Made by a program: the position numbers and the translations under genes. From positions 11,603 through 75,602 of the forward strand of contig JBKHIT010000018.1 in NCBI GenBank assembly GCA_046538485.1: a DNA stretch of 64,000 nt, in the 5' to 3' direction. Shown here piece after piece: positions 1,601-45,080 of the stretch (position 1 is its first letter; every line of letters begins with the position of its first letter). This DNA comes from Candidatus Brocadiia bacterium (GTDB taxonomy: Bacteria > Planctomycetota > Brocadiia > SM23-32). The notes beneath the pieces are model-generated. The model did not search any database. It was not told where the DNA came from and worked only from the letters and a program-made list of their open reading frames with translations.

Positions 1601-3384
1601 TGGTAGTTCGCCTCCAATTCGTCCAGCTGTTTCCGCACTTTATCGTTCAGTTCCTGGAGACCTTCTTCATCCTCATTTTCGATGTGGAACCGCGCCCGCT
1701 GCAATTCGCCGACGACATCCAGTTCCTGAAGGCGCATAATGGGCGCACCGGCCGATATGATTTCTTTGGCCCGCCGGTAAAACGTCATGATGGCTCGCAA
1801 AAACGCGGCCTGGCGTTTCGGATCGCAGAAAGAGTCGACATCGTTAAAAGCGTCCTGTTGCAGGAATCCACGCTTGAGAGTTTCAGCACAAAGCAGGCTC
1901 AATCTCTGTTCATCCGGCAACACATCACGCCCCACCAATTTAACGATCTCCTGCAGCCGATCATATTCCTGGAGAAGATTTATGCCATCCCGGCGCAGAC
2001 TTGCCCAATCAGATTCTATCTTCCCCCACCAATCCGCGATTTCATCGACGTATTCGCTGTAACTCTGATCCCAATTCACCGCGGGGAAATGGCGCGCGTA
2101 CGCCAGGTCTCTGTCGAGCACCCAGAAACACCGCACGAAACGTTTTGTGTGCTGGGTCACCGGTTCGCTGAAATCTCCGGCGGGCGGGCTGACCGACCCG
2201 ACCACCGTCACGCTCCCTTTATCGCCCCCAAGTGTTTCCACAAATCCGGCCCGCTCATAAAATTCTGCAAGTCTCTTGCTCAAATACGCGGGGAATCCTT
2301 CCTCGGCCGGCATTTCCTCGAGTCGGCTGCTGACCTCGCGCAAAGCCTCAGCCCAGCGGCTCGTCGAATCCGCCATAAGCGCGACATCGTATCCCATATC
2401 GCGGAAATATTCGGCCACGGTAACGCCGCTGTAAATCGATATCTCACGCGCGGCGACGGGCATATTCGAAGTATTGGCGATCAAAACCGTGCGTTCCATC
2501 AACGAACGCCCCGTTCTCGGGTCCTGAAGATCCGGGAAAACACGCAGGATGTCCGTCATCTCGTTGCCGCGTTCCCCGCATCCCACGTAGATGACCACGT
2601 CGGCATCGCTCCATTTCGCCAGTTGCTGCTGGACGACCGTTTTCCCGGTTCCGAAATCGCCGGGGACGGCCGCCGAACCCCCCCGCACGATGGGAAACAT
2701 CGTATCCAGCACACGCTGCCCGGTAATCAACGGCTCGGTCGGACGCAGGCGTTCGCCGAAGGGGCGCGCCTCGCGGCAGGGCCATACCTGCACCATATCC
2801 AGTTCGTATTCTTCCCCGTCCTGCGCCTGAATTACACAGACAATTTCTTCGACCGTATATTCACCGGTCTCCCGAATATGCGTCACTTTTCCCGCACAAG
2901 CTCTGGGAACCATCAATCGATGTTCTATGGATTCGGTCTCCTGAACCGTTCCAAAGATCTGGCCTTCTTCCACATTATCGCCTTCCTCGACATTCGCCTC
3001 AAATTCCCATTCTTTTGCTTTATCGAGCGGGAAAGCTTTGGCACCACGCTTGATGAAAGGGCCTAATTTTTCTTGAAAAGTGCCCAGCGGATGCTGAATG
3101 CCATCGTAGATTCCTCCGAGCATGCCGGGGCCCAGCTGCAAGGAAAGCGGTCGGCCTTTTCGTTTTACCTCCATCCCGGGTTCAAGGCCGCCCGTGTGTT
3201 CATAAACCTGAATAGTGGCTCGGCCGCCGCTGACCTTGATAACTTCGCCGATAAGGCCATCCGGGCCGACTTCGACAACTTCATACATCATGGCCCGTTC
3301 CATACCTTCGGCCTCGACGATAGGCCCGGAGACACGGCAAATTTTGCCGCTTTCCAGATTTTGTTCTGCTACAGTTTCAGTCAT
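1597..3384 (-). CDS. ntpA: V/A-type ATP synthase catalytic subunit A
   Basis: 595 aa with Walker [11 protein letters not shown] and [16 protein letters not shown]. The long insert between the N-terminal barrel and the P-loop is characteristic of V/A-type A subunits. Confidence 0.95.
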
Positions 3385-3430
3385 TCTGAGGCCACTTTCC
3401 GGTTTTTACCCGCGGTTTTTCTTGCCGCAA

Positions 3431-4078
3431 TTACGCTCCTTCTGTATCGTCTTCAGGTTTTTCCTGTTCGAACAAAACCTCGGCGGCCTCTTGCCGTAAC
3501 TGAGGCCAGAGCCGATCCAGACGGTTCTCAAAAGTCTGCTCACAAATCTGGCTACCATCCTCACGTTGTATAACAACTCCTCCAACGACCGATATCGTTT
3601 CATCGGCCAGATTAATGGTGACCTGCCGACCGAGTTCGTTGGCGGCCCGTTCCCGCACAGCTCCCCGGATCTTATCGCCTAATTTCTCCCGATCATCGTC
3701 TCTCATAACGAGTTCAAAACGCCGTCCGGTCATCCCGGAGATGGCGGCGCAGGAAAGTTCAATAAGAGCTTTTTCGTAATCTCCATTACTTCTGAGATCC
3801 TCGAGGGTCTGCAGCACCCGATCTCGGATTTCATCCAGAATATCTTCCCGGGCGTTGCGCTCGATATTCGCCTTTTCCAGATTGAGGCGGGCTTTCAATC
3901 TTTGAACTTCATTTTTCGCGCGCTCACGGGCTTGCTGGAGGATATCTTCTTTGCGCTCTTCAGCCTCCTCTTGGGCCTTTTCTACGATTTCGTCGGCTTC
4001 TTTCCGGGCCCGCTTTTTGATAGGCTCGGCCTGCTGCCGCGCGTCTTCGAGAATCTGTTCTGAAAGTGCGCCGCTCAT
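3431..4078 (-). CDS. V/A-type ATP synthase subunit E (peripheral stalk)
   Basis: 215 aa. The N-terminal half is a charged coiled coil (EDARQQAEPIKKRARKEADEIVEKAQEEAEERKEDIL) and the C-terminal half is globular. Position is between F and A. Confidence 0.8.
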   Translation of the reverse strand: MSGALSEQILEDARQQAEPIKKRARKEADEIVEKAQEEAEERKEDILQQARERAKNEVQRLKARLNLEKANIERNAREDILDEIRDRVLQTLEDLRSNGDYEKALIELSCAAISGMTGRRFELVMRDDDREKLGDKIRGAVRERAANELGRQVTINLADETISVVGGVVIQREDGSQICEQTFENRLDRLWPQLRQEAAEVLFEQEKPEDDTEGA

Positions 4079-4134
4079 TATGTTTTCCCGATATCCTCGT
4101 TAGCCTTACGTCTGTGGTAACTCTCTAATCGTTT

Positions 4135-4443
4135 TCAATCTCCGAAACTTATCCCGACCGCTTCTCGGATAAGGCGAAAGAGCGAAGGACCTTCTTCCGA
4201 CGGGCCTTCGGGACCAGGTATTTCGACGATCAACGGAAGTTCTTCGTTGTAACGAATCCGGTCGATGTCATCCCGCACCCAATCCGCCACTCTCTCTGGA
4301 ACGATCAGGATCACCTCTTTTTCCTTTTCCACCCTGCGGAGCGCTTTTTCGGCCGTTTCCGGGTCGTCCGCAATATGGCCTTCGATACCGGCCATGCGGA
4401 AACCAAGCACCGTATCGGCATCGCCCAGCGCGCAGATTCGCAT
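4135..4443 (-). CDS. V/A-type ATP synthase subunit F
   Basis: Start moved to the internal ATG at 4443 (AGGAG 8 nt upstream). The product MRICALGDADTVLGFRMAGIEG... is ~100 aa, the typical F-subunit size and N-terminus. Confidence 0.8.
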   Translation of the reverse strand: MRICALGDADTVLGFRMAGIEGHIADDPETAEKALRRVEKEKEVILIVPERVADWVRDDIDRIRYNEELPLIVEIPGPEGPSEEGPSLFRLIREAVGISFGD

Positions 4444-4485
4444 AATAAAGGCTCCTGATCCCGGGCAGGGCAAGAACGTCTTACT

Positions 4486-4842
4486 TTAAAGTCTCATCCA
4501 CAGCAAAACGCCGATCAGCAGACCGTAGATCGCAATCCCTTCGGCCAGAGCAACAAACAGAAGGCTCCGGGTCAGAAGATCCGGGTTCTCGCTGGCGGCC
4601 CCCAGCGCGGCGGAACCTATTCGTCCGACGGCATAGGCGGCGCCAAGACACGGCAGGCCGACTGCCACCGCAATCGCCCAGGCCAGATGGAGACTGGTGG
4701 GGTTTTGCTGCTCAACCACCGTTTCTTTCTCTGGTGTCTCCGCCTCACCGGCGATGGCGGAAGCGGGACCAAACCAGCAGGCGGCTCCCAGAACCAGACC
4801 GACCAAAATCAAGATCTGACAACTCCTTTTTCGACTTAACAT
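4486..4842 (-). CDS. V/A-type ATP synthase subunit K (c-ring proteolipid), single-hairpin form with an N-terminal signal-like segment
   Basis: 118 aa. A Gly/Ala-rich helix (GLPCLGAAYAVGRIGSAALGAASENP) is followed by a helix carrying the ion-binding Glu (FVALAEGIAIYGLL). AAGGAGAG SD lies upstream. Confidence 0.8.
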   Translation of the reverse strand: MLSRKRSCQILILVGLVLGAACWFGPASAIAGEAETPEKETVVEQQNPTSLHLAWAIAVAVGLPCLGAAYAVGRIGSAALGAASENPDLLTRSLLFVALAEGIAIYGLLIGVLLWMRL

Positions 4843-4892
4843 GAAACTCTCCTTCGTGCTCTCTTACTTTTCTGCAGCGATCCGGGGCACAC

Positions 4893-6911
4893 CTATTGGT
4901 TCTGTTCGAGCTGAAACGGCGAATATTTGTGCCCATCGCCGCGGAAAAATTTCGTAAAAAATTCGTAGTATTCCAGACGGAAGATCTGAATGGCCACAAT
5001 CAGCCCTTCCAGACCGATGATGACCGCGGTCCCGGCCACAAAAATCAGAGCCGCCCAAATCGGCGACGCGGGCAGCTCCTGGATGGGTTTTTGAAGAATG
5101 CAAATTGTAAAACACAGCGCCACATGGCTCAAAGCAAACGCCGCCACCCTGAGAAAAGAAAAGGTATTCGCTAAAAATGTCATAACGGTCTCCAGTGCTT
5201 CGACAACCCCTTCAAAAAGACCGACAACTGCGCTTTCTCCCCCTTCTGCCCCTTTTCCCAACAATATCAGTATTGGCTGGTGCAACGCCAAAACAAGCAA
5301 CGGGACAAGGATAAAGCCCAGAATCATGTATAAATCCAGAGTGCCTTTCCCCACCACAACGATTTTGACGATCGTCCCGAGTGTGCCCCAGTAGAAGACC
5401 ATACCGGCAATACCAAACCGCCCGAGAAATCCCTGCTCATATTCGCCGGCCCGGAGTCGACTGATAATGTTGAGCAAAACACCAAGACTGATCAGCGTCA
5501 CTCCGAATCCCACCGCAATCAGCATGTATCGAATGATCTGGTCGGCCGCCCCCGCGGTTCCGCCCTCAAAATTGATGGGTTCAAGCCCCAGGGTCAGAGG
5601 CCAACCCATCTCCGTGAGACTTTGCCCGAAAAACGAGCCCTGAAAAAAGGTCCCGAAAAGTGCACTGGCTATCCCTGCGCAGCCAATGACAAATCCGACA
5701 TCTTGAACCTCCGCCCGATCGGCGATTTTGTATGTCACAATCCCAATGGCCAGCAGACAGAGCCCGTGTCCGAGATCACCGAAGATCACCCCGAACATCA
5801 GAAGAAAACTGACGGCGAAAAGAATCGTCGGCTCGATTTCTTCATATCCCGGCACGCCGAATCCCTGGACGAGCCGCTGAAAAGGCTGCAACCATCCGGG
5901 CAGACGGGTATAAGTGGGCACTTTGCCGGAGTCAATTTCCTCCTCCGTGGCTTCGCGCGTCTCGCAAATCGCGTTACCGTCCGTCACTCTGTCAATCGCG
6001 TTTCGCACGCGCCCGATCTGCTCTTCGGGGGACCAGCCTGTAATGATTGCGGTCGCCCAGGTGGATCCGTATTTTTGTTCGGCCTGGCTGATCCGTAGCT
6101 GGCGGATCACAGACCGATACGCAGCTCTGAGTTCTGCGGCGTTCGTTTTCCCCAGCTCGCGCAATGGTTCCTGCATCTCTTCTCGTTGCTCTTTAAGCTC
6201 ATCGCGTTCTTCCCGCGCTCTGTCGTAAATCGCCGCCGGCGCCGCCTCGTAATCTCTGGGCAACTTTTGTTCTTCGAACTGATAATCTTCCAGAATGGTC
6301 CGGAGGGCAAAACGGCTCCGACGGCTGCTCAGGGCCAGGACTCGGTGAACCGTCGCGCCCGCCCCTTCCGGTTTAACGGGTTCGCCGATTGAAACGACCA
6401 CAGCATCATCAGGCAGTTCCTTCTGTGCGCCGGGAATCCGTTTTGCCGGCATGTCGCCGGCAGTTACGTGCAAAAACGAAGTTTCCGAAAGCTCCTGCGG
6501 CGAGACTTCCAGATCGCGGTACGGCAACACACGATCCATTACGTCTTTGGCCTGCGCAATTTCTTCTTCCAGATCTTTCAGCGCATCTTCAACCGGCTGG
6601 ATTCGGCTTTCGATATCTCCAACCAGCCGCTCAATGCCGTCCAGGTCAGCCGGTTTCCTCTCTCCTTCCGACTCTATCAACCCTTCGTGATCGACTTCCA
6701 GGCGGTCCATGGCTTTCTCCAGCCGCCTTTTCAGCCCCTCACACCGCTCAGCGCGTTGCTCAAGCTCTTCTCTCACCTCACGGCCCTCCTGTCCCTCTTC
6801 GGCCTGCGAAAGTTCAACGGCCCCCAATCGTCCCAGCGTTTCAGTAACAACATCCACCTGACGCTTCAGGACGATAATCCGGATGCGTTGCATGTGCACG
6901 TGGACGAGCAT
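4893..6911 (-). CDS. V/A-type ATP synthase subunit I (a-subunit, stator/proton channel)
   Basis: ~670 aa with an N-terminal cytoplasmic coiled-coil half and a C-terminal multi-TM half ending in the conserved FLRVAAFALSHVAL / RLEYYEFFTKFF region. The start is placed at ATG 6911 (MLVHVHMQRIRIIVL); the ORF-track start at 6959 would overlap subunit C by 29 nt. Confidence 0.9.
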   Translation of the reverse strand: MLVHVHMQRIRIIVLKRQVDVVTETLGRLGAVELSQAEEGQEGREVREELEQRAERCEGLKRRLEKAMDRLEVDHEGLIESEGERKPADLDGIERLVGDIESRIQPVEDALKDLEEEIAQAKDVMDRVLPYRDLEVSPQELSETSFLHVTAGDMPAKRIPGAQKELPDDAVVVSIGEPVKPEGAGATVHRVLALSSRRSRFALRTILEDYQFEEQKLPRDYEAAPAAIYDRAREERDELKEQREEMQEPLRELGKTNAAELRAAYRSVIRQLRISQAEQKYGSTWATAIITGWSPEEQIGRVRNAIDRVTDGNAICETREATEEEIDSGKVPTYTRLPGWLQPFQRLVQGFGVPGYEEIEPTILFAVSFLLMFGVIFGDLGHGLCLLAIGIVTYKIADRAEVQDVGFVIGCAGIASALFGTFFQGSFFGQSLTEMGWPLTLGLEPINFEGGTAGAADQIIRYMLIAVGFGVTLISLGVLLNIISRLRAGEYEQGFLGRFGIAGMVFYWGTLGTIVKIVVVGKGTLDLYMILGFILVPLLVLALHQPILILLGKGAEGGESAVVGLFEGVVEALETVMTFLANTFSFLRVAAFALSHVALCFTICILQKPIQELPASPIWAALIFVAGTAVIIGLEGLIVAIQIFRLEYYEFFTKFFRGDGHKYSPFQLEQNQ

Positions 6912-6930
6912 TTTTGAACTTTCTTTCCAC

Positions 6931-7941
6931 TCAATTCCCGTAATAGGTCGATTCCACAACCTGGAACAGGTTTCTTAATTCATTGCGGCGAAGGTAAAAA
7001 TAACTGACAAGTATCGCCGGGCCTCCGAGCATTTGCCGGTACAGCCTGTTTGCGCAGGTGGATGTCCGACGCCAGAGTTTCTCTTCCATCTTCAGCAGGT
7101 CCCCGGCATCTTCCGCAGTCAGAGAAGGCACGGCGCTCGCGATATTCTCGGACGACGGATCGTTGAAAATTTCTTCCAGCCTGCTGCTGGACAGGAAAAG
7201 ACTCCTTTGCTCGGGTATGGGCCCGTTCCACTGGCAAAGCACGTTCGAGAGATTTTCCCAATCGATTTTATAATGGCGGCCGGCCCGCACAACCGCCAAC
7301 AACCGTTCGGATGCCGCTTCCAGAGCAAGGGGCCCGGCACATTCGGATCGGTGAGAGATACCGATGTTTTTGAGACCAGCGCTTACGCCGTCCCAATAAG
7401 CTTTCATAAGTGCCATTTCAGTAAACGCCGTGGTGTTCGATTTTTCATCGAGTTCCACGCCCAATTCTGCGGCAGAAAGCAGTTTTTCTGGCAATTTTTG
7501 AACAAATTCCGATAGGTCGGAACTTGAGAGTAAGGAGGCCGAGGGCACAGCGAGACTGTCGGGCAGATTCACCACATACTGGCTGCGGTCGACCTCGGCG
7601 CCGCCGACGAACAACCGCAGCAATACATGGATGTTATCGATCTGGAACCGCGACAACATAGAGAAGTAAAAACGCGCCAGCGGGGGCGAAAGGTAACGCG
7701 TGAAAGAAACAAGCTCGTCGGTAGCATCCTGGCGAAGTTGGCGCTCCAGACCCAGGCGTCGTCCCGGCACCCTGCGAGGGTAGAATCGCTCCCAGAGTTC
7801 TTCAACGCTTTTCATACGTTTCAGTTCTTCCAGGCTCTCACCTTCAAACAACCGCCGTTTCCGGCCCCGCAACTTCGCGTTCACAAAAGCAAGCGGACAG
7901 TTCATAAGCGATTCGGGATTTGCCGGCAACGTTTGTTCCAC
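6931..7941 (-). CDS. V/A-type ATP synthase subunit C (d-type, AC39 family)
   Basis: 336 aa, all-helical. Its position between G/H and I and the C-terminal YFYLRRNELRNLFQVVE block fit the C/d family. GTG start with AGAGGAAA SD. Confidence 0.75.
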   Translation of the reverse strand: MEQTLPANPESLMNCPLAFVNAKLRGRKRRLFEGESLEELKRMKSVEELWERFYPRRVPGRRLGLERQLRQDATDELVSFTRYLSPPLARFYFSMLSRFQIDNIHVLLRLFVGGAEVDRSQYVVNLPDSLAVPSASLLSSSDLSEFVQKLPEKLLSAAELGVELDEKSNTTAFTEMALMKAYWDGVSAGLKNIGISHRSECAGPLALEAASERLLAVVRAGRHYKIDWENLSNVLCQWNGPIPEQRSLFLSSSRLEEIFNDPSSENIASAVPSLTAEDAGDLLKMEEKLWRRTSTCANRLYRQMLGGPAILVSYFYLRRNELRNLFQVVESTYYGN

Positions 7942-34116: not shown

Positions 34117-34723
34117 GTTCCAACCTTCTGTTGTCGTCTCGGCGCAAAAAAAAAGAATTAGACGAGCCACTTGCGTTGTGTAGAAATATTGGCGCAGGCG
34201 GAACTTAAAGATAGACAGAAAAAGTTTTTAACCCGGAATCCGGATCTCAAGGCCGTTGAGGAGCTGGTTTTGCCTGAATAACCGTTTTCACCACATGAAC
34301 CCCCGCGAGCGGACTGGACTTCAGCCGGAGACTGGAGTTCAGAACGCGGACAATAAACCGGCAGGTCTCGGAGAAAAACAGCAGAACGACCAACGGCAGC
34401 TCCGCCTCAGCGATGCGGACCGACAGCTACCTGGCATTTCACGGCATTTGTCCGCCTCAAGTCCCCCTTCGTCCGCCTGAGTGGCGGGCTCAGCTGAACT
34501 CGAGCCTGCAGGATACGCGGTCGAGAAGCGGGGTTGCAAGCTTACAGAATCATTGACACTAAACATGAGGTTTGTATTACGACAAGCTCTATAGACTTTA
34601 CCGAAGGAAAATTAAGGAATTTGCGCTCGCTGCGATGGGAACAGGGGACACGATTTTTGGGAAATGCCTGGCTACCAGCACCGCAACGACCCACAGCGCA
34701 AAGTCCTCTCTCCACAAAAATCC

Positions 34724-34751
34724 TTGACAAACCAATGCGCATTGTTACAAT
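34724..34751 (+). promoter_or_regulatory. putative sigma70 promoter upstream of the HEAT-repeat gene
   Basis: TTGACA-16 nt-TACAAT, 75 nt upstream of ATG 34826. Confidence 0.45.
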
Positions 34752-34825: not shown

Positions 34826-35917
34826 ATGCTTTATCATGGACAAAGGGTATGCGCGGTAGTATTCGCTCTCTCGCTGGTCCTTGGCGCCGTTGTAAGCATT
34901 TTTGGTGCCGATGACAAACGAGATGCCCTGTGGTATTCTTACAAAACAGGGTCAGTCGAACGTCAAAAACTGCTGGCGCAGGCCCAAAGAAGACTGAAAA
35001 GTGTTCGGCACAAAGCCGAACAAAACAAGGCCACCGAATGGCCGACCGATGAGAATTTCCGGTGGCTTACCGAACATCGTACGCCAGGCCGTCTCGTCGT
35101 CGAAAAAGCCCTCAAAAGCCACCCCCGGGGCGCTTCGTTGAAGGTTCTCGTCCTGCTCACCCGCCATCTTGAAGGCCGCCGACTGACCCGCCATCTCCCC
35201 GATCTGGCATTTCGAAGCCGCTCGATGGAAACCCGCCGGCTCTTGTTCGAAACGATGGCATCCGTTGGGGACGAAAAATGCCGGGAAACTCTCCGAAAAT
35301 TCCTCGGAGCCAGCGACCACTCTGCGGACGAGCAGTTGCTATGTTCGGCTGCCGAAGGTCTGGCCGCAACAAAAGATAAAAAATACATCCCTCTCCTGAA
35401 AAAAGCCTACGGACTGGTCCACTCAGAACCTGCTAGACTTCGAATCGCCGTCGCGCTTTACAAATGCGGAGAGCGAGATGCTGGCAAACAATTGCTCGAG
35501 CATCTAAGAAAGACAAAAGATCCTGAGGTGTTAGCCGATGCCCTGGGTCTGCTGGCCATCCGGCCAGTACCCAATGCGATTCCGGTGATGGAAAAGTTCG
35601 CTGTCGAATCCCCCGATCCCGCAATCGCAACACTGGCCTTTGAAGCTCTCAAATCACATACGGGCTTCCAGCAAAAACGACCCGCTCAACAACCAACCGA
35701 TAAAAAAGAGCCAGAAAAATTCGTGGCAAAAGATGATCTACGCCCCGATGAAAAGACGTCCCGCTCAAAAAAACACTTCGGCGATCTATCCAAAAAAGCA
35801 AGACAAAAACGAGTCCAGCGTATCGTGCAATGGGCACGCGCCCATCCCGATGCAATCGTTGATAAACCCTCAGAGGAAGACCCGAGAAAAGATAACGAGG
35901 TGGGCTCATCGCACTGA
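34826..35917 (+). CDS. secreted/anchored HEAT-repeat-like protein
   Basis: N-terminal hydrophobic segment VCAVVFALSLVLGAVVSIFG, repeated helical LLxxL/DPxV units (KDPEVLADALGLLAIRPVPNAIPVMEKF) and a basic disordered tail. Confidence 0.55.
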   Translation: MLYHGQRVCAVVFALSLVLGAVVSIFGADDKRDALWYSYKTGSVERQKLLAQAQRRLKSVRHKAEQNKATEWPTDENFRWLTEHRTPGRLVVEKALKSHPRGASLKVLVLLTRHLEGRRLTRHLPDLAFRSRSMETRRLLFETMASVGDEKCRETLRKFLGASDHSADEQLLCSAAEGLAATKDKKYIPLLKKAYGLVHSEPARLRIAVALYKCGERDAGKQLLEHLRKTKDPEVLADALGLLAIRPVPNAIPVMEKFAVESPDPAIATLAFEALKSHTGFQQKRPAQQPTDKKEPEKFVAKDDLRPDEKTSRSKKHFGDLSKKARQKRVQRIVQWARAHPDAIVDKPSEEDPRKDNEVGSSH

Positions 35918-35988
35918 AAAACGAATTCGAATCACCAAACGCAAAATCAATGCTTCGTTCCGTAAATCCTAAGAATAGGGGTACAGTT

Positions 35989-37497
35989 ATGAAACGCGCT
36001 TTCGCAAAAAGAGATGGGCAGGTTATCATACTGTTCGCTTTCACAGTCATCCTTCTGGCCATGCTCTGCGTGCTCACAATTGACGTGGGCTTTCTTTTTA
36101 CCTCCCAGGCGGAATTGCAAAACGCCATTGATTCAGCGGCTCTCGCCGGCGCTTCCCAGCTCCATACCCGTTTCACCGACCCAAACTGGCGGGATAACGT
36201 CAAAAACGAGGCCATGGCGCTGGCCGAAGCCAACCTCGTCGCCGGAGAACGCCTCACCCTCACCGACAGCGATTTTCAGTTCGGACACTACAATGACACT
36301 ACCGGCGATTTCGTGCCCGAACCAACCGCCTCCACCATCGATAGCGTGCGGGTCAGAGGACGTCGGACCGATGGCTCCCCGGATGGACCCGTCAGAACGT
36401 TCTTCGGCCCGATCTTCGGTTTCGACTCGGTCTCGTTCTCGGGATCGGTCGCCGTCGGCACTAAACCCCGCCGGTTCGTCATGTTCGTGCTCGACCGCTC
36501 CGGGTCCATGTGTTTTGACAGCAAACACGTGCATGAAAGAAGTAAACCTCTCTACGATCCTGCCCGTGACGAATACTACGCGCAGAACAGCCCCAGCGGC
36601 TGGTACGCCGTCCCCCAGTACGTTTACTACGCGGGCAACTGGCGCACCGGCTGGCTCTACGGCCGCGATATGAACACCAATGCGATTCTTACCTCTTCTG
36701 GCGGGGGACTCGACTGGCTTCCCACGGGTGTGCAGGATACGATTTCCTCGGACAGGTATTTCTACTTCCGGTCGCCGGAAGGTTCCAACAACCCCGCCTG
36801 GATGCACGTCCCCTCCAACGTGCGGATCTGTTCCTACTACGACAGCGATGAGTGGTACCATTACGACTACAACAACACCCCCGAGCAATGCGATTACGCC
36901 TTCGCCGACGCCTCCGTTCAACCCATCCAGAACACCATGGACGCCGCCTGCTCGTTTATCGATCTGCTGGACGCCGCGGACGACCGTGCGGGGCTGGTCA
37001 CTTATTCCAGCGGCGCCACACTCGATTCCCAGCTCACGGGGGACTGGCCGGGGCTGAAAACCAGGATTCAGCGTTTCACCCCGTGCGGCTCCACCGCCGA
37101 GCCGGCCGGGATGGCATCGGCGGTTGGAGAACTGACCTCCAGCCGAGCCCAGGAATACGGTCAGAGAATCATGATCCTGCTCACAGACGGAGTTGCCAAC
37201 GTCTCCAGCGGTCATTACTATAACGAAGGCAACGGCAGGATGGATCCGATGGACGCCAGCGTCAGCACGCCCATCGATGAAAGTGTTTACGACGATATGG
37301 GCTACTGGGCCGATCAGGCGAAACAAAACGGTATCCGCATTTACTGCGTGACGTTCGGTTCGAGCACGGATCAGGAAGTGCACGAGCAGATCGCCGGCCA
37401 TACCGGAGGAGCCTACTACTACTCCGCAGATGCCGGGAACCTGACAGATATATTTGAGGATATCTTCCGCCGACTGCCACCCATACTGACGCACTGA
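35989..37497 (+). CDS. TadE/TadG-like N-terminal domain + von Willebrand factor A (vWA) protein, copy A
   Basis: MKRAFAKRDGQVIILFAFTVILLAMLCVLTIDVGFLFTSQAELQNAIDSAALAGA (Tad-like pseudopilin N-terminus). vWA MIDAS VLDRSGSM, then ILLTDGVAN. Confidence 0.8.
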   Translation: MKRAFAKRDGQVIILFAFTVILLAMLCVLTIDVGFLFTSQAELQNAIDSAALAGASQLHTRFTDPNWRDNVKNEAMALAEANLVAGERLTLTDSDFQFGHYNDTTGDFVPEPTASTIDSVRVRGRRTDGSPDGPVRTFFGPIFGFDSVSFSGSVAVGTKPRRFVMFVLDRSGSMCFDSKHVHERSKPLYDPARDEYYAQNSPSGWYAVPQYVYYAGNWRTGWLYGRDMNTNAILTSSGGGLDWLPTGVQDTISSDRYFYFRSPEGSNNPAWMHVPSNVRICSYYDSDEWYHYDYNNTPEQCDYAFADASVQPIQNTMDAACSFIDLLDAADDRAGLVTYSSGATLDSQLTGDWPGLKTRIQRFTPCGSTAEPAGMASAVGELTSSRAQEYGQRIMILLTDGVANVSSGHYYNEGNGRMDPMDASVSTPIDESVYDDMGYWADQAKQNGIRIYCVTFGSSTDQEVHEQIAGHTGGAYYYSADAGNLTDIFEDIFRRLPPILTH

Positions 37498-37499
37498 TG
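36007..37499 (+). repeat. 1493-bp direct repeat, copy A
   Basis: Identical to 41660-43152 except one base (36039 t vs 41692 a, synonymous Ala). Verified by reading several lines of both copies and by identical translations in three overlapping frames. Confidence 0.95.
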
Positions 37500-37751
37500 A
37501 GAGCTGACGCCGGGTACTGGTGGCCCAAGACAATCGGCCTTGTTGGGTTGGAAGTTCTCGGTCAAATCCAGCTCGACACGTAGGGCCTGGGGCCACCCGG
37601 GTGGGTTGCTGCGAAACCACACTTTTATGTGTTCTCCGGTTCCCTTTCCGGCAGAACGGAATGGATTTGTTGTTCAAACTGCGAAAACAAAATTCTCAAA
37701 ATAATTGAGCGCTTCGCCAAAAATGAAGACATTACTGGAGGGAAAAACGAA

Positions 37752-38522
37752 ATGCGTGCGTTTCTGTTAATCTTCATCCTGGCCATAGCAGTCACCGCTA
37801 TCGCGGCTTACTTTATGGTCGGGGATGAACTGGGGCTGACAACCGCCAACAACGAAGTGAAGGCGGACAAGACGGTTGCAACAGCGCCCGAAGAGCCGGA
37901 TTCGGAGGCCCAGAAAAAAGAGCCCGAAGCCGAACCCCACAGGAAACCAGAGGAAGCGAAACCTCAGGCCTCGAAAACAGAAGTTGAAAAAGACGCCGAT
38001 GTCTCTGAAACAAAAACTGAACCACAACCCGAGCCAGAACCTAAAAAACAACCTGTAAAGCATGAAGAACCCGAGAATACCGCACCTGAAAAAAGCACCG
38101 AAGAGAAACAAGACCGGGAAAACAAAACCAGGACGCAAAAGCAGCATTATATACAGCTGCCCAGACAGCTTCGTGGGTTGCGTTTCGGAATGTCAGCGAA
38201 CCAGGTACGCGAAAAACGGAAACCCGCCTGGCATAAAAAAGAAAAAGATACTCTTATGCTGGTCTACTATTTTGACGAATCTAAGAAGGTCGAAGCCCGC
38301 TTCCATTTCAAAAAGGATAAGGGCTTAAACAAAACGGAAATCAGATTTAAGAGTAAAGACAAGGATAAGCTGGCAGAACTCTATAGCAAATACCGTCAGC
38401 GTTACGAAGACCGGTACGGCCATTTGCCCGAAAGTTCGACCACCTGGTGGGCCGATAGCTACATTCATGCCAGCATCGACAAGGGGAGAGATCACGTCGC
38501 GCTCATTTTTCGTGATCGTTAA
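37752..38522 (+). CDS. membrane-anchored protein with P/E/K-rich linker and conserved C-terminal domain of unknown function, paralogue A
   Basis: ATG 37752 (GGAGGG upstream). TM MRAFLLIFILAIAVTAIAAYFMV. The C-terminal 122 aa are 88/122 identical to paralogue B by manual alignment. Confidence 0.6.
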   Translation: MRAFLLIFILAIAVTAIAAYFMVGDELGLTTANNEVKADKTVATAPEEPDSEAQKKEPEAEPHRKPEEAKPQASKTEVEKDADVSETKTEPQPEPEPKKQPVKHEEPENTAPEKSTEEKQDRENKTRTQKQHYIQLPRQLRGLRFGMSANQVREKRKPAWHKKEKDTLMLVYYFDESKKVEARFHFKKDKGLNKTEIRFKSKDKDKLAELYSKYRQRYEDRYGHLPESSTTWWADSYIHASIDKGRDHVALIFRDR

Positions 38523-38869
38523 AATGATACATCTTGACTGTGTGTTGTTTCATATTGACACATGTGTGGTACGGCCGGGTTTTCCACACCCTCGGGCGGA
38601 ATATAATAATCTGACATGTTGAACTTTATAGCGTGGGAAAAATCGATTGAGAATCCTGTTTTCCCCCCTCGGTGAAATGCACGCAAAGCGCCGCTGAGAG
38701 CATAAAACCGCTTGCTCGAAACCTGGAAGGGGACTCCCAGAGACAGCATCCGCGGATTAACAGGCGTAAGATTGGCAGGATATTTGCAGTAGTGTTTAAT
38801 TGGAATGAATTGTCTTTTAATACAAAATATCAGAAAACATAGAAACCTAAACCCTTGGAGGTACACACA

Positions 38870-39892
38870 GTGATTGTGGGAAAAGGCACGAGACGGAACG
38901 GACAGGTGGTCGTAATGGCGGCGTTCGCGCTGATTCTCCTCGCTTTAATTGCGGCACTCACCATTGATATTGGCTATATGTTCTGTCAAAAAGCGCGCCT
39001 GCAAAATGCAGGCGATGCGGCGGCCAATGCGGCAGCATTCCGCTATATCAACGCCCGGCTTAATGGCGAAGAAATGGACGAGGCCCGCAGCGAGGCCGAG
39101 CAGGAAGGCACAGTCTTCGCCAGCATGAACTCCGCAGGAACGAGCTGTGAAGTTCAATTTGGAGAATATGTCGATGGCAACTTTGTGGAACTCGGTGAGA
39201 GCGATGAAGCATCGGCAATCCGGATGGGACTCGCCAGAGACGAAGATGCCCCCGGCGGACCGGTCAGTCTCTTTTTCGGATCGCTCATGGGCTATAATTC
39301 CGTCGATTTGGCGGGCGATGCTGTCGTCGAGATGTCAGCGAACATCACGGGAGTGCTCAACGGAAGTGACCTTCGCCCTTTCGCCGTTTATGAAGGCGAT
39401 GTACAGGGCTGGACGCCGGGGAGCCCGATAACAATTAATCTACCGGATGCCAGCACAATGAGTCCTGTGGCGCCCGGAAACTGGGGCTGGTTGAATCTGG
39501 ATGGGGGAAGCCTCGGTACCAAAGAGCTGAAAGATTGGATCGATAACGGATACGATGGGGATATAAGCCTCGACGAAACGGGCGCCGACGGTCGGCTTTG
39601 CACCTGGATCGGGGGCTCTTGCGGTGTCAGAAAAGCCCTGCAAAAACATTTCGAGAATATCGTGGACGACAACTTGATCCTCTGCATTTATGATAAGGTT
39701 ACCGGCAACGGTGCCAATGCCCAGTTCCGGATTGTCGGTTTCATTTCGATGACATATACCTCTGTGGATATGCACGGAAAGACAGGAAGCATCGAAGGCG
39801 AGCTGAACGCAATCCAGAGCCTGCCCTACTGCGAAATTGGTGACGGAGCCTCACCCGAATCGAATGTTGTCACTGTCCGCCTCGTTCAATAG
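38870..39892 (+). CDS. TadG-like pilus-assembly/pseudopilin-like protein (no vWA), paralogue 1
   Basis: GTG 38870 with GGAGG 8 nt upstream. RRNGQVVVMAAFALILLALIAALTIDIGYMFCQKARLQNAGDAAANAAA, then PGNWGWLNLDGGSLGTKELKDWIDNGY. Confidence 0.7.
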   Translation: MIVGKGTRRNGQVVVMAAFALILLALIAALTIDIGYMFCQKARLQNAGDAAANAAAFRYINARLNGEEMDEARSEAEQEGTVFASMNSAGTSCEVQFGEYVDGNFVELGESDEASAIRMGLARDEDAPGGPVSLFFGSLMGYNSVDLAGDAVVEMSANITGVLNGSDLRPFAVYEGDVQGWTPGSPITINLPDASTMSPVAPGNWGWLNLDGGSLGTKELKDWIDNGYDGDISLDETGADGRLCTWIGGSCGVRKALQKHFENIVDDNLILCIYDKVTGNGANAQFRIVGFISMTYTSVDMHGKTGSIEGELNAIQSLPYCEIGDGASPESNVVTVRLVQ

Positions 39893-40173
39893 AACGCCCA
39901 AAAAGGTGTGCTGTTTGACAAACCAATTTTGTTGATTGTGACGCAACGACGAGATTGCTTCGCTCCGCTCGCAATAACAGAGAATGCTATGGAAACGCCA
40001 TTGCGAACCACCGGCTCGCCGAAACCGGCGTTATGGAACCCTGGCGAAGGAGGGGAGCCCGCTGCTTGGGCACCGTGGCAATCTTGCGATTCTCCCCATA
40101 AAAACAACTGTCATGAATCAATATGGGCAGCAAAGCCCGAAACGCCCCACACCGCAAATCCCTCAAAAAATAG

Positions 40174-40201
40174 TTGCATTACTCCCTGGAGCAGGTATAA
40201 T
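40174..40201 (+). promoter_or_regulatory. putative sigma70 promoter upstream of TadG-like paralogue 2
   Basis: TTGCAT-16 nt-TATAAT, 55 nt upstream of ATG 40256. Confidence 0.45.
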
Positions 40202-40255
40202 TAAAGCGTTAAGAGGTTATCGAGTCAGGTGCCTGTAATGTGGAGGTGTGGAGTT

Positions 40256-41323
40256 ATGTTCCGGCGAACTATAAAAAAACGTGACGGGCAAATATTGGTT
40301 TGTGGAGCTTTGACGGTGCTCGCACTGGCGGCTATTGCAGCCTTAACTATCGATGTCGGCTATATGTTCAAAACGCAGGCAGATATGCAAAACGGGGCGG
40401 ATGCGGCCGCTGTGGCGGCTGGCGGGGCTCTGGTGCAGGGACGCTCAGCTGGCGACAGTGAAGCTACATGCCAGGCTGCGGCTCAAGCCGAAGCCCAAAA
40501 TCTCGCCGCATACAACTGCCCGGGCGCACGAGCGGAAGTGAAGTTCGGAACCTATCAGGATGGCAGTTTTGAACCTCTTACTGACTCTGACGGCGATGGT
40601 TACGATGACGACACCGGGGATATGGCCAGCGCCATTGGAGTAAAACTTTTCCGCGACGAAACCTCTTCAGGTGGCCCCCTGGCCCTCTTTTTTGCCTCGC
40701 TTGCCGGCCATGATTCAGTGAACATGAAAACAGCGGGATTGGTCGATATCCGTTACAACATCTACGCCATCGGTAACGACCTCCGCCCTTTCGCCGTCCC
40801 CTCTGCCGCCGTTTCTGGTCTCTCCCCCGGGGATAGCTTCACAATTAACCTGATGGAAGAAACGGAAATCGACGAAGACGGCGATGGAGAAACCGATTAT
40901 ACGCTGGCGCCCGGAAACTTCGGATGGCTGAATATGGACGGCGGCTCACTCGGGACACCCGAACTGGTCGAATGGATCGAGAATGGATATCCGGAACTGT
41001 TTACCATCGACCCGGACGTCGGCCATATCTGGATCGACGGGCTCACCGGTCTCCGCTCCTCCCTTAACAAACCTATCCAGGACGTTGTAGGAAAAAAGCT
41101 TTTCATGTGCGTGTTCGATACGATCGACGGAGGCGGAGCCACGGCCGATTTCCGAATTGTCCGGTTCGCAGGTGTAACAATAGACAAAGCCATCCTCAAC
41201 GGGAAAAAATCCCGTATTGAGTGCACGTTCAACCGTCTTTCCTATGTCCCGGTCTGCATTACGGACGGCGATGGTGCGGAAGATCCGTCCGAGAACCTGT
41301 GCAAAATTACGCTTGTGCAGTAA
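40256..41323 (+). CDS. TadG-like pilus-assembly/pseudopilin-like protein (no vWA), paralogue 2
   Basis: ATG 40256 (GGAGG 9 nt upstream). KKRDGQILVCGALTVLALAAIAALTIDVGYMFKTQADMQNGADAAAVAA, then PGNFGWLNMDGGSLGTPELVEWIENGY. Confidence 0.7.
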   Translation: MFRRTIKKRDGQILVCGALTVLALAAIAALTIDVGYMFKTQADMQNGADAAAVAAGGALVQGRSAGDSEATCQAAAQAEAQNLAAYNCPGARAEVKFGTYQDGSFEPLTDSDGDGYDDDTGDMASAIGVKLFRDETSSGGPLALFFASLAGHDSVNMKTAGLVDIRYNIYAIGNDLRPFAVPSAAVSGLSPGDSFTINLMEETEIDEDGDGETDYTLAPGNFGWLNMDGGSLGTPELVEWIENGYPELFTIDPDVGHIWIDGLTGLRSSLNKPIQDVVGKKLFMCVFDTIDGGGATADFRIVRFAGVTIDKAILNGKKSRIECTFNRLSYVPVCITDGDGAEDPSENLCKITLVQ

Positions 41324-41641
41324 ATAACGCGCAGACGGCAATCAGTTGATCAGCCCTCAGGGCAAGCGCCATTTGTATCGACATGCAGCCGACAGCCCAT
41401 CTCTCCAACCCATTGCCACACCAGTTTGTGTAATTAAAGCCCTGGCTCGTCCTTAATAAAGGAGCACGAGCCGGTTGCAAAAACGGTGGCACTTTCAGCT
41501 CCCTCGGGTATACTTAAAGTAGTGAGTTTAAAGACGTTTTTACAGAACACCCGGAAAGGTAACAAACAACAAACCAGGAGAAATACAGGTGCATTAAACT
41601 TTATTTCACACGCGTGCCGTATGAGAAAAGGGGTGAAAACC

Positions 41642-43150
41642 ATGAAGAACGCCCTCAAGAAAAGAGATGGGCAGGTTATCATACTGTTCGCATTCACAGT
41701 CATCCTTCTGGCCATGCTCTGCGTGCTCACAATTGACGTGGGCTTTCTTTTTACCTCCCAGGCGGAATTGCAAAACGCCATTGATTCAGCGGCTCTCGCC
41801 GGCGCTTCCCAGCTCCATACCCGTTTCACCGACCCAAACTGGCGGGATAACGTCAAAAACGAGGCCATGGCGCTGGCCGAAGCCAACCTCGTCGCCGGAG
41901 AACGCCTCACCCTCACCGACAGCGATTTTCAGTTCGGACACTACAATGACACTACCGGCGATTTCGTGCCCGAACCAACCGCCTCCACCATCGATAGCGT
42001 GCGGGTCAGAGGACGTCGGACCGATGGCTCCCCGGATGGACCCGTCAGAACGTTCTTCGGCCCGATCTTCGGTTTCGACTCGGTCTCGTTCTCGGGATCG
42101 GTCGCCGTCGGCACTAAACCCCGCCGGTTCGTCATGTTCGTGCTCGACCGCTCCGGGTCCATGTGTTTTGACAGCAAACACGTGCATGAAAGAAGTAAAC
42201 CTCTCTACGATCCTGCCCGTGACGAATACTACGCGCAGAACAGCCCCAGCGGCTGGTACGCCGTCCCCCAGTACGTTTACTACGCGGGCAACTGGCGCAC
42301 CGGCTGGCTCTACGGCCGCGATATGAACACCAATGCGATTCTTACCTCTTCTGGCGGGGGACTCGACTGGCTTCCCACGGGTGTGCAGGATACGATTTCC
42401 TCGGACAGGTATTTCTACTTCCGGTCGCCGGAAGGTTCCAACAACCCCGCCTGGATGCACGTCCCCTCCAACGTGCGGATCTGTTCCTACTACGACAGCG
42501 ATGAGTGGTACCATTACGACTACAACAACACCCCCGAGCAATGCGATTACGCCTTCGCCGACGCCTCCGTTCAACCCATCCAGAACACCATGGACGCCGC
42601 CTGCTCGTTTATCGATCTGCTGGACGCCGCGGACGACCGTGCGGGGCTGGTCACTTATTCCAGCGGCGCCACACTCGATTCCCAGCTCACGGGGGACTGG
42701 CCGGGGCTGAAAACCAGGATTCAGCGTTTCACCCCGTGCGGCTCCACCGCCGAGCCGGCCGGGATGGCATCGGCGGTTGGAGAACTGACCTCCAGCCGAG
42801 CCCAGGAATACGGTCAGAGAATCATGATCCTGCTCACAGACGGAGTTGCCAACGTCTCCAGCGGTCATTACTATAACGAAGGCAACGGCAGGATGGATCC
42901 GATGGACGCCAGCGTCAGCACGCCCATCGATGAAAGTGTTTACGACGATATGGGCTACTGGGCCGATCAGGCGAAACAAAACGGTATCCGCATTTACTGC
43001 GTGACGTTCGGTTCGAGCACGGATCAGGAAGTGCACGAGCAGATCGCCGGCCATACCGGAGGAGCCTACTACTACTCCGCAGATGCCGGGAACCTGACAG
43101 ATATATTTGAGGATATCTTCCGCCGACTGCCACCCATACTGACGCACTGA
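41642..43150 (+). CDS. TadE/TadG-like N-terminal domain + vWA protein, copy B
   Basis: Start at ATG 41642 (MKNALKKRDGQVII...). From residue 7 onward the protein is identical to copy A. Confidence 0.8.
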   Translation: MKNALKKRDGQVIILFAFTVILLAMLCVLTIDVGFLFTSQAELQNAIDSAALAGASQLHTRFTDPNWRDNVKNEAMALAEANLVAGERLTLTDSDFQFGHYNDTTGDFVPEPTASTIDSVRVRGRRTDGSPDGPVRTFFGPIFGFDSVSFSGSVAVGTKPRRFVMFVLDRSGSMCFDSKHVHERSKPLYDPARDEYYAQNSPSGWYAVPQYVYYAGNWRTGWLYGRDMNTNAILTSSGGGLDWLPTGVQDTISSDRYFYFRSPEGSNNPAWMHVPSNVRICSYYDSDEWYHYDYNNTPEQCDYAFADASVQPIQNTMDAACSFIDLLDAADDRAGLVTYSSGATLDSQLTGDWPGLKTRIQRFTPCGSTAEPAGMASAVGELTSSRAQEYGQRIMILLTDGVANVSSGHYYNEGNGRMDPMDASVSTPIDESVYDDMGYWADQAKQNGIRIYCVTFGSSTDQEVHEQIAGHTGGAYYYSADAGNLTDIFEDIFRRLPPILTH

Positions 43151-43152
43151 TG
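41660..43152 (+). repeat. 1493-bp direct repeat, copy B
   Basis: See copy A. The offset is 5653 bp and the copies are separated by 4160 bp. Confidence 0.95.
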
Positions 43153-43221: not shown

Positions 43222-43803
43222 ATGCGTCCGATTGCTATTATCTTTACCCTGGCCCTCGCCGTCACTGCTATCGTCGGCTATTTCCTGATCGCGGACGAAT
43301 CCCCTAACACAGCGTCAAATACTCCTGCCACAGGCGAAACGGCAAATGTGCTCGGCAAATCCGAGCGGGAAAAGGGCAAACAGGATCAGCAAAGGAACAA
43401 TCGCGAAACATTTGATAAAACGCGCCGTTATATCCAGTTACCCAGGCACATCCGGGGATTGCGTTTCGGGATGTCGGCAACCGAAGTGGCCAAAAAATGG
43501 AAACCGGCCTGGCACAAGAAGTCAAGAGGCACTGTTACCGCTGTGCACTACTTCGATGAATCCAAAAATGTCGAGGCACGTTTTGAGTTCAAGAAAGAGA
43601 AAGGACTACAGAAAATAGAACTCCGGTTCAAATCCGACGATAAGAACCAGTTGGCAGAACTCTACACTACTTATCGGCAGCGTTACGAAAAGCGTTACGG
43701 CGATTTACCTCACAGTTCAGCGACCTGGTGGGCCGACAGCTACATCCATGCCAGTATCCATAAGGGCAGAAATTACGTCTCGCTCACTTTCCGAAACCGG
43801 TAG
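43222..43803 (+). CDS. membrane-anchored protein with conserved C-terminal domain of unknown function, paralogue B
   Basis: ATG 43222 (GGAGGG upstream). TM MRPIAIIFTLALAVTAIVGYFLI. The C-terminal domain is shared with 37752-38522. Confidence 0.6.
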   Translation: MRPIAIIFTLALAVTAIVGYFLIADESPNTASNTPATGETANVLGKSEREKGKQDQQRNNRETFDKTRRYIQLPRHIRGLRFGMSATEVAKKWKPAWHKKSRGTVTAVHYFDESKNVEARFEFKKEKGLQKIELRFKSDDKNQLAELYTTYRQRYEKRYGDLPHSSATWWADSYIHASIHKGRNYVSLTFRNR

Positions 43804-44081: not shown

Positions 44082-44660
44082 ATGTCCGGCGATCAAAAAA
44101 CAGGTTGGCTTCGACATCTGATCACATTCATCTTCATTTTCGCCGTCGGAGGATTCATGATGCATCGGGGTGGCTGCTTGAAAAGTCAGCCGCCGCTTCG
44201 TCCGGAAAATGCCCGCATCGTCGATTTAAAAATCCAGGACTGGCAGATACAAGCGGAAATTGCCGATACCCCTGAGCTTCGCCAAAAAGGTCTGCAGGGG
44301 CGACAACATCTCCCCCAGGGCTCGGGCATGCTGTTCATACTTGATGAACCGCGGGTACCACAGTTCTGGATGAAAGATACAACAATCGAACTGTCAATTG
44401 CTTTCATTAAAGAAGACGGTACTATTGTCTCGATCAAACAAATGGAGCCGCGCAGTCCCGTACACATAAGCCCTGAGGAACCGGTAAAGTACGCTCTGGA
44501 GGTCCGCCAGGGGTGGTTTGCTGACCGGCATATTGGAGCGGGGGCAAAAGTGGAGATCCCGGAAGATATCCCCTCTGCCCCACCGCCCACGCCCGCAGAA
44601 ACTGAGGGAGAAATGGAAACACCTACGACAGAAACGCCCCCGGCGGTTCCCGCTCCGTAA
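44082..44660 (+). CDS. DUF192 domain protein
   Basis: N-terminal TM, then ADTPELRQKGLQGRQHLPQGSGMLFILDEPRVPQFWMKDTTIELSIAFIKEDGTIVSI, the typical DUF192 core. Confidence 0.75.
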   Translation: MSGDQKTGWLRHLITFIFIFAVGGFMMHRGGCLKSQPPLRPENARIVDLKIQDWQIQAEIADTPELRQKGLQGRQHLPQGSGMLFILDEPRVPQFWMKDTTIELSIAFIKEDGTIVSIKQMEPRSPVHISPEEPVKYALEVRQGWFADRHIGAGAKVEIPEDIPSAPPPTPAETEGEMETPTTETPPAVPAP

Positions 44661-44700
44661 GGCCACGGCGCAAGATTCATACCCGATCCTGCATCCTTGC

Positions 44701-44731
44701 TATAGCCTGCATCTTACGGATGCAGGCTATA
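44701..44731. terminator. perfect 13-bp stem hairpin downstream of the DUF192 gene (possible terminator or protein-binding palindrome)
   Basis: tatagcctgcatc-ttacg-gatgcaggctata. There is no U-tract on either strand, so an intrinsic-terminator role is uncertain. Confidence 0.35.
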
Positions 44732-45080
44732 TAAAACGGCGCGTGCCGTTCAAGCGTAAGAACTTACAACAACAAAAAGTGTTCACAATTTACGGCCAGT
44801 GCTACTCTGCCGGAAGATGTCTGTATGTTCCTTGTGAAAAAGGCGTTAAAGCAAACCGTTTCGCAACGTCGCGTTCGACTCGTTGCTGATCACGAATTTT
44901 AAGTTGTCAGATTTATGCGCCGTTTTTTTTAGTCCGGATTTTTGGCTCAGAATGGTTATGAACGGTGTTCAATAAACAAGCCGCGTGCAATTTGGCAATA
45001 GTGGGTTCAAATTATCCGTAAAATCCGGGCTAGCAGATTCCGGCAACTCCGCGTAACTTCCCATCCCAGCGAGGCCCATC

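Follow-up and report, generated by a model that had tools for sequence, protein, structure and literature searches.

The tufA and tufB genes of Salmonella and Escherichia coli are two near-identical coding sequences (CDS) on one chromosome with unrelated flanks, and conversion between them is limited by the edges of homology. In Salmonella this conversion proceeds processively until heterology blocks it, and near the gene ends, where differences between the copies persist best, it takes place much less often (PMC5485169). Among the genes of ammonia oxidation, paralogues within a genome can be closer to each other than to their orthologues in other genomes, a pattern documented over many genomes and long time spans (PMC6053082). 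In the pilE/pilS system of Neisseria, copies of a pilus gene recombine non-reciprocally, and silent cassettes serve to diversify the gene that is expressed. TadG/CpaL, a minor pilin with a vWA domain, has been proposed to sit at the tip of the Tad pilus (PMC12607857, PMC12075869), and Myxococcus has alternative tip sets made of diverged TadG-like paralogues. Here we describe a locus that recalls each of these systems in part. It lies in a 64,000-nt stretch of Candidatus Brocadiia bacterium (assembly GCA_046538485.1, contig JBKHIT010000018.1, positions 11,603 to 75,602; hereafter the window), in which two genes for a TadG-like minor pilin with a vWA domain, vWA1 and vWA2, share a long direct repeat. 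The two genes probably descend from an old duplication and have been kept near-identical by repeated non-reciprocal homologous recombination between the direct repeats. This is an ordinary, known process in a new example, and no new mechanism is called for.

Like tufA and tufB, vWA1 and vWA2 are near-identical CDSs set between unrelated flanks. The tuf genes, however, lie 762 kb apart in inverted orientation and are essential and highly expressed, whereas here an accessory surface protein is encoded by direct repeats at a distance of 5.65 kb, and their recombination can also remove or multiply the segment in the middle. With the ammonia-oxidation genes the pair shares a greater closeness within than between genomes, although the comparison here takes in one genome and one fragmented sister metagenome-assembled genome (MAG). 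As in Neisseria, non-reciprocal recombination would act between copies of a pilus gene, but its effect here would be to homogenise two complete genes. Judged from their sequences, the vWA proteins resemble TadG/CpaL in that a hydrophobic Tad/TadE-like segment at the N-terminus precedes a vWA domain bearing a metal ion-dependent adhesion site (MIDAS) motif; they differ from it in their partners, a HEAT-repeat protein and an uncharacterised membrane-anchored protein. The presence of several TadG-like paralogues in one locus is reminiscent of the Myxococcus tip sets, but the Myxococcus paralogues are diverged while vWA1 and vWA2 are not.

A base-by-base comparison of window positions 36007-37499 and 41660-43152, at an offset of 5653 nt, gave 1492 matches in 1493, for which chance is no issue. 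The block of identity runs from nt 19 of the CDS (codon 7) to 2 nt past the TGA stop codon, and directly outside both ends the identity at this offset falls to background level. The 1493-bp repeat with one synonymous mismatch, its start 18 nt into the vWA CDS, its end 2 nt past the stop codon and the 4160 nt between the copies are thus as the original prediction had them; one mismatch is to be read as a lower bound, since the repeat's interior forms a single edge of the assembly graph. A search of the whole 5.19-Mb, 143-contig MAG found exactly two copies, and in a self-BLAST the pair was the longest and most identical repeat of the assembly. Purifying selection alone was ruled out as the cause, as the synonymous sites are identical too. 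A mobile element was also considered and rejected: neither the repeat unit nor the 4160-nt inter-repeat segment contains a transposase or integrase.

The two-copy structure was checked against an independent set of contigs, the Logan contigs (k=31) of run SRR29060563, which match the window at 100% (Table 1). The four flank contigs each enter the repeat by exactly 30 nt (k-1), showing that all four junctions are present in the reads. The repeat itself is one collapsed node in the Logan assembly, and the order left flank, repeat, middle segment, repeat, right flank is the only walk that uses every segment once, as in the MAG. The locus therefore holds two real copies, and a spurious duplication made by the assembler, one of two artefacts against which the original prediction had warned, is ruled out by these junctions.

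The sequences around the two copies have diverged to a very different degree, and the contrast that the original prediction drew between copies and flanks is borne out. The genes that follow them, ancA and ancB, are paralogues with 87 of 122 identical C-terminal residues (88 had been claimed) and a proportion of synonymous differences (pS) of 0.75-0.79, which is saturated. TadG1 and TadG2, the two genes between ancA and vWA2, have 43% amino acid identity and a synonymous distance (dS) of ~3, also saturated. Neither the 5′ leaders (71 and 318 nt), predicted from the start to be unrelated, nor the 3′ spacers (252 and 69 nt) have residual homology beyond that of shuffled controls. A degenerate homology upstream of the start codon had been considered and was dropped, the test of leaders and spacers not being significant. 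In other genera, co-located vWA paralogues have only 60-70% nucleotide identity.

The history of the pair can be followed with the help of a sister MAG (GCA_018334735.1, Planctomycetota by its NCBI name), which was found by cluster look-ups and has 96-98% nucleotide identity to the window. Three of its contigs cover parts of the locus (L032, L033 and L034; Table 1). Leader 1 is kept in L032 and L034, leader 2 is kept in L033 at ~97%, and each is attached to the 5′ end of a vWA gene. Seven copy-specific sites within CDS nt 6-17 are the same in the sister and in the window. Conservation of both leaders and of the copy-specific first 17 nt shows that the duplication is older than the split of the strains. 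The flanks in the sister are orthologous to the respective flanks in the window and unrelated to each other, not equally identical as a simple recent tandem duplication would have them, and such a duplication is argued against by these sequences.

From nt 18 on the picture changes. No site groups the orthologues, and sites 177 and 304 group the copies by genome. Inside the repeat 36 sites separate the sister from the window, and at 36/36 of these the window state is common to both window copies, which, given a duplication older than the split, points to concerted evolution, as the original prediction had proposed alongside gene conversion. The two window copies differ from each other at 1 site, with the reservation that their interior is a collapsed graph edge, and the sharp boundaries of the block stand beside diverged, saturated flanking paralogues. 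Orthologous neighbour genes differ between sister and window by 0.9-3.4% of nucleotides (dS 0.02-0.09); hence ~13-50 differences between the copies would be expected had there been no homogenisation since the split, where the assembly shows 1. That one lies at CDS nt 51, where both sister sequences have T, so the A in copy 2 is the derived state. Over CDS nt 18-323 the window is a mosaic of two 5′ variants of the sister, following one at nt 25-30 and 264-267 and the other at nt 162-195; the sister is a strain mixture, and 323 nt of its copy 2 are available. In a tree of vWA proteins both window copies and the sister stand together on a long branch; closer relatives are absent, and the tree by itself is no test of discordance. 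A search of genome contigs for related loci gave no relative.

A one-off recent insertion or replacement, by which a copy of the vWA CDS came to lie beside a pre-existing ancB without conversion between old paralogues, would suit an identity block that is almost exactly the CDS and flanks without significant residual homology. We hold this to be highly improbable. The sister already has both contexts, complete with orthologous leaders and the first codons specific to each copy, which places the event before the split, and the window copies nevertheless share all strain-specific changes; moreover, it would take a coincidence for a non-homologous event to begin exactly at codon 7, behind a similar start (MK.A..) that was already there.

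If recurrent conversion is the correct reading, exchange between the direct repeats would occur by intrachromosomal, presumably RecA-dependent, gene conversion in the course of break repair, to which unequal sister-chromatid exchange may add. Genes for recA and mutS are present in the genome. Exchange would reach only as far as homology lasts. The edges of identity would erode freely in non-coding DNA, whereas purifying selection would slow the erosion inside the CDS, so that the identical block would come to coincide with the CDS, from nt 19 to 2 nt past the stop. The pattern seen in tuf would fit this course of events: the block ends where homology ends, both strains share the copy-specific boundary at nt 17, and the lone derived mismatch lies near an edge.

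Recombination between the repeats could also delete the 5.65-kb unit. The original prediction had pointed to such deletion, and sister contig L032, in which leader 1, vWA and ancB follow one another, has the form of the predicted product; it may equally be a path taken by the assembler. The direct joining of these three elements would also be compatible with an arrangement other than two chromosomal copies, namely a chromosome with leader 1-vWA-ancB plus a circular or strain-specific 5.65-kb molecule with vWA-ancA-TadG1-TadG2, or a tandem array of more than two units, forms that a loop in a de Bruijn graph cannot distinguish. We consider this decidedly unlikely, as the 5.65-kb unit is without a replication or mobility gene, the TadG2-leader 2-vWA junction is also found in the sister, and the one-pass walk described above is the simplest path through every segment. 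A circle and a deletion would, furthermore, themselves arise by recombination between two copies.

Several observations weigh against conversion between the copies, or at least against taking its traces at face value. Ends of the MAG contigs show 42 overlaps of exactly 55 nt, and at 175 of 286 contig ends the terminal 55-mer is found again at another place in the assembly (at k=77 this holds for only 4). The MAG is thus a short-read de Bruijn assembly with a final k of 55, in which a 1493-nt repeat is one edge walked twice and its interiors are identical by construction, so that the identity of the interiors is in part built in. Isolated differences that lie further than 55 nt from a unique flank would form bubbles, which are normally merged. 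The mismatch that was kept lies 33 nt from the 5′ unique flank, inside the zone that can be phased at k=55, and the Logan contig already lacks the A variant of 41692, so isolated differences between copies can indeed be lost. On the side of the sister, the 36 differences are clustered (nt 162-195, 536-580, 896-1002 and 1485-1497), which makes the clock expectation only approximate and points to recombination patches. The sister sample is a mixture of strains (four single nucleotide polymorphisms and a 6-nt indel distinguish L032 from L034 over 125 nt), its contigs are chimeric in part, and some differences between sister copies 1 and 2 may be differences between strains; the argument that the duplication preceded the split is independent of this mixing. 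Finally, the comparison is without an outgroup inside the genus.

The assembly points, taken to their conclusion, would mean that two real copies with interiors ~2% or more apart were collapsed by the assembler, and that the step from ~100% to ~70% identity is partly an assembly product. Such a collapse would leave the k=55 signature, a repeat that is one node in both assemblies, and a single mismatch in the sole zone where copy differences can be phased, with even that variant dropped by Logan; the original warning of collapse was to this extent justified, the interior identity not being an independent observation. We nevertheless think it unlikely. At all four junctions the flank contigs merge exactly k-1 nt into the repeat, and no branch survives over the 1493 nt in either of the two assemblies. 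The sister, itself assembled at k ~55 to judge from its contig overlap, kept clustered differences of ~5% between its two 5′ ends apart, and similar divergence near the flanks would have shown in the window. Large hidden divergence is disfavoured by both observations, and a hidden divergence of 1-2% would still need homogenisation relative to the saturated flanks. We therefore retain recurrent conversion as the probable explanation; the interiors would then be exactly, or almost exactly, identical.

The features of the locus, all of whose genes are on the + strand, are collected in Table 1.

Table 1. Features of the vWA locus, with the Logan and sister contigs that cover it (window coordinates).
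Feature	Position	Strand	Remarks
HEAT-repeat gene	34826-35917	+	precedes vWA in this bacterial family
Leader 1	35918-35988	+	71-nt spacer after HEAT gene, unrelated to leader 2
vWA1	35989-37497	+	502-aa TadG-like minor pilin with vWA domain; Pfam, product on record
Repeat copy 1	36007-37499	+	1493 nt; Logan contig L040 equal base for base
Single mismatch	36039 T / 41692 A	+	Ala17 GCT/GCA, synonymous; 33 nt inside repeat
Inter-repeat segment	37500-41659	+	4160 nt; ancA, TadG1, TadG2
ancA	37752-38522	+	256-aa membrane-anchored protein, no Pfam match
TadG1	38870-39892	+	340-aa TadG-like protein without vWA domain
TadG2	40256-41323	+	355-aa TadG-like protein without vWA domain
Leader 2	41324-41641	+	318-nt spacer after TadG2
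vWA2	41642-43150	+	502 aa; differs from vWA1 only at residues 3, 5, 6
Repeat copy 2	41660-43152	+	1493 nt; only difference from copy 1 at 41692
ancB	43222-43803	+	193-aa paralogue of ancA
DUF192 gene	44082-44660	+	downstream of ancB
Logan contig L038	34613-36036		left flank
Logan contig L040	36007-37499		precisely the repeat, 1493 nt
Logan contig L036	37470-39974		flank contig
Logan contig L037	39946-41689		flank contig
Logan contig L039	43123-44730		right flank
Sister contig L034			tsaB, usp, HEAT, then 12 nt of vWA gene
Sister contig L033			part of TadG1, TadG2, leader 2, first 323 nt of vWA
Sister contig L032			107 nt of leader 1, whole vWA gene, ancB, DUF192

The start codons at 35989 and 41642 agree with the 502-aa products on record. 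Both products match Tad (PF13400), Tad_C (PF09977) and VWA (PF00092) in Pfam, all above the cut-offs, with the MIDAS sequence DRSGS at residues 169-173 and a TDG motif at 399-401. An aromatic-rich insert of ~130 aa (window 36490-36920, residues ~180-310), with 15 Tyr and 6 Trp per 120 residues, sits between the MIDAS DxSxS strand and the remaining vWA domain. The genome has 5 PF13400 genes, four of them at this locus and the fifth on contig C60, and there is no Tad machinery within the window. The fifth gene, a 950-aa open frame in C60:27546-34477, lies ~6 kb from a T2SSE-type ATPase. The C60 genes may be a candidate for the Tad machine used by the orphan TadG-like proteins. The gene order HEAT, vWA, small membrane-anchored protein is conserved at nine loci (L023-L031) of other genera in this family; as a rule a TadG-like gene lacking the vWA domain is close by and Tad machinery is not.

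Upstream of the HEAT gene, by 75 nt, is a strong promoter-like sigma-70 match (34724-34751; TTGACA, 16 nt, TACAAT, with TG; 11/12). vWA1 lies downstream of this site, 71 nt behind the HEAT gene; vWA2 is preceded by a separate leader of 318 nt. To judge from this arrangement, one and the same protein may be expressed under two kinds of regulation, in each case beside a different anchor paralogue. The locus as a whole is bracketed by dispersed, high-copy intergenic repeat families, at window positions 34160-34720, within the 709-nt spacer between usp and the HEAT gene, and 44700-45033; by BLAST against the MAG these gave 213 hits on 76 contigs and 68 hits on 45 contigs, respectively.

Two ends of the sister contigs depart from synteny. 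In L032, the region 3169-7200, which follows a ~330-nt dispersed repeat, is sequence found on contig C25 of this genome and not etfB, and the terminal 123 nt of L034 (3976-4098) match contig C126. These ends are either rearrangements or chimeric joins in the sister. Within the locus, TadG1 (window 39320-39907) compared with L033:5-631 gives 71% nucleotide and 72% amino acid identity, where the neighbour genes have 96-99%, and a search for ancA in the sister gave no homologue with at least 90% identity. The region from one vWA copy to the other appears to be a cassette that varies from strain to strain.

It is conceivable, though in our estimate unlikely, that the pair acts as a recombination switch, in which crossing-over deletes or amplifies ancA-TadG1-TadG2 and selection keeps the adhesin genes identical so that the switch works. 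If this were true, one population would contain cells alike in their vWA tip adhesin but unlike in its partner sets and in the leaders that precede it, and the sister leader 1-vWA-ancB contig and the divergent sister TadG1 allele would be traces of cassette turnover.

For the reading of repeats in MAGs, the locus is a reminder that in a k=55 assembly the identity of long-repeat interiors is not an independent observation. If recurrent conversion has indeed maintained the pair, the locus would be a clean example of concerted evolution in an uncultured planctomycete, and one that concerns a gene for a surface adhesin in place of the customary housekeeping genes (tuf, rrn, amo). Strains may also differ at this locus through deletion or the exchange of cassettes, a point of interest for the diversification of pilus tips.

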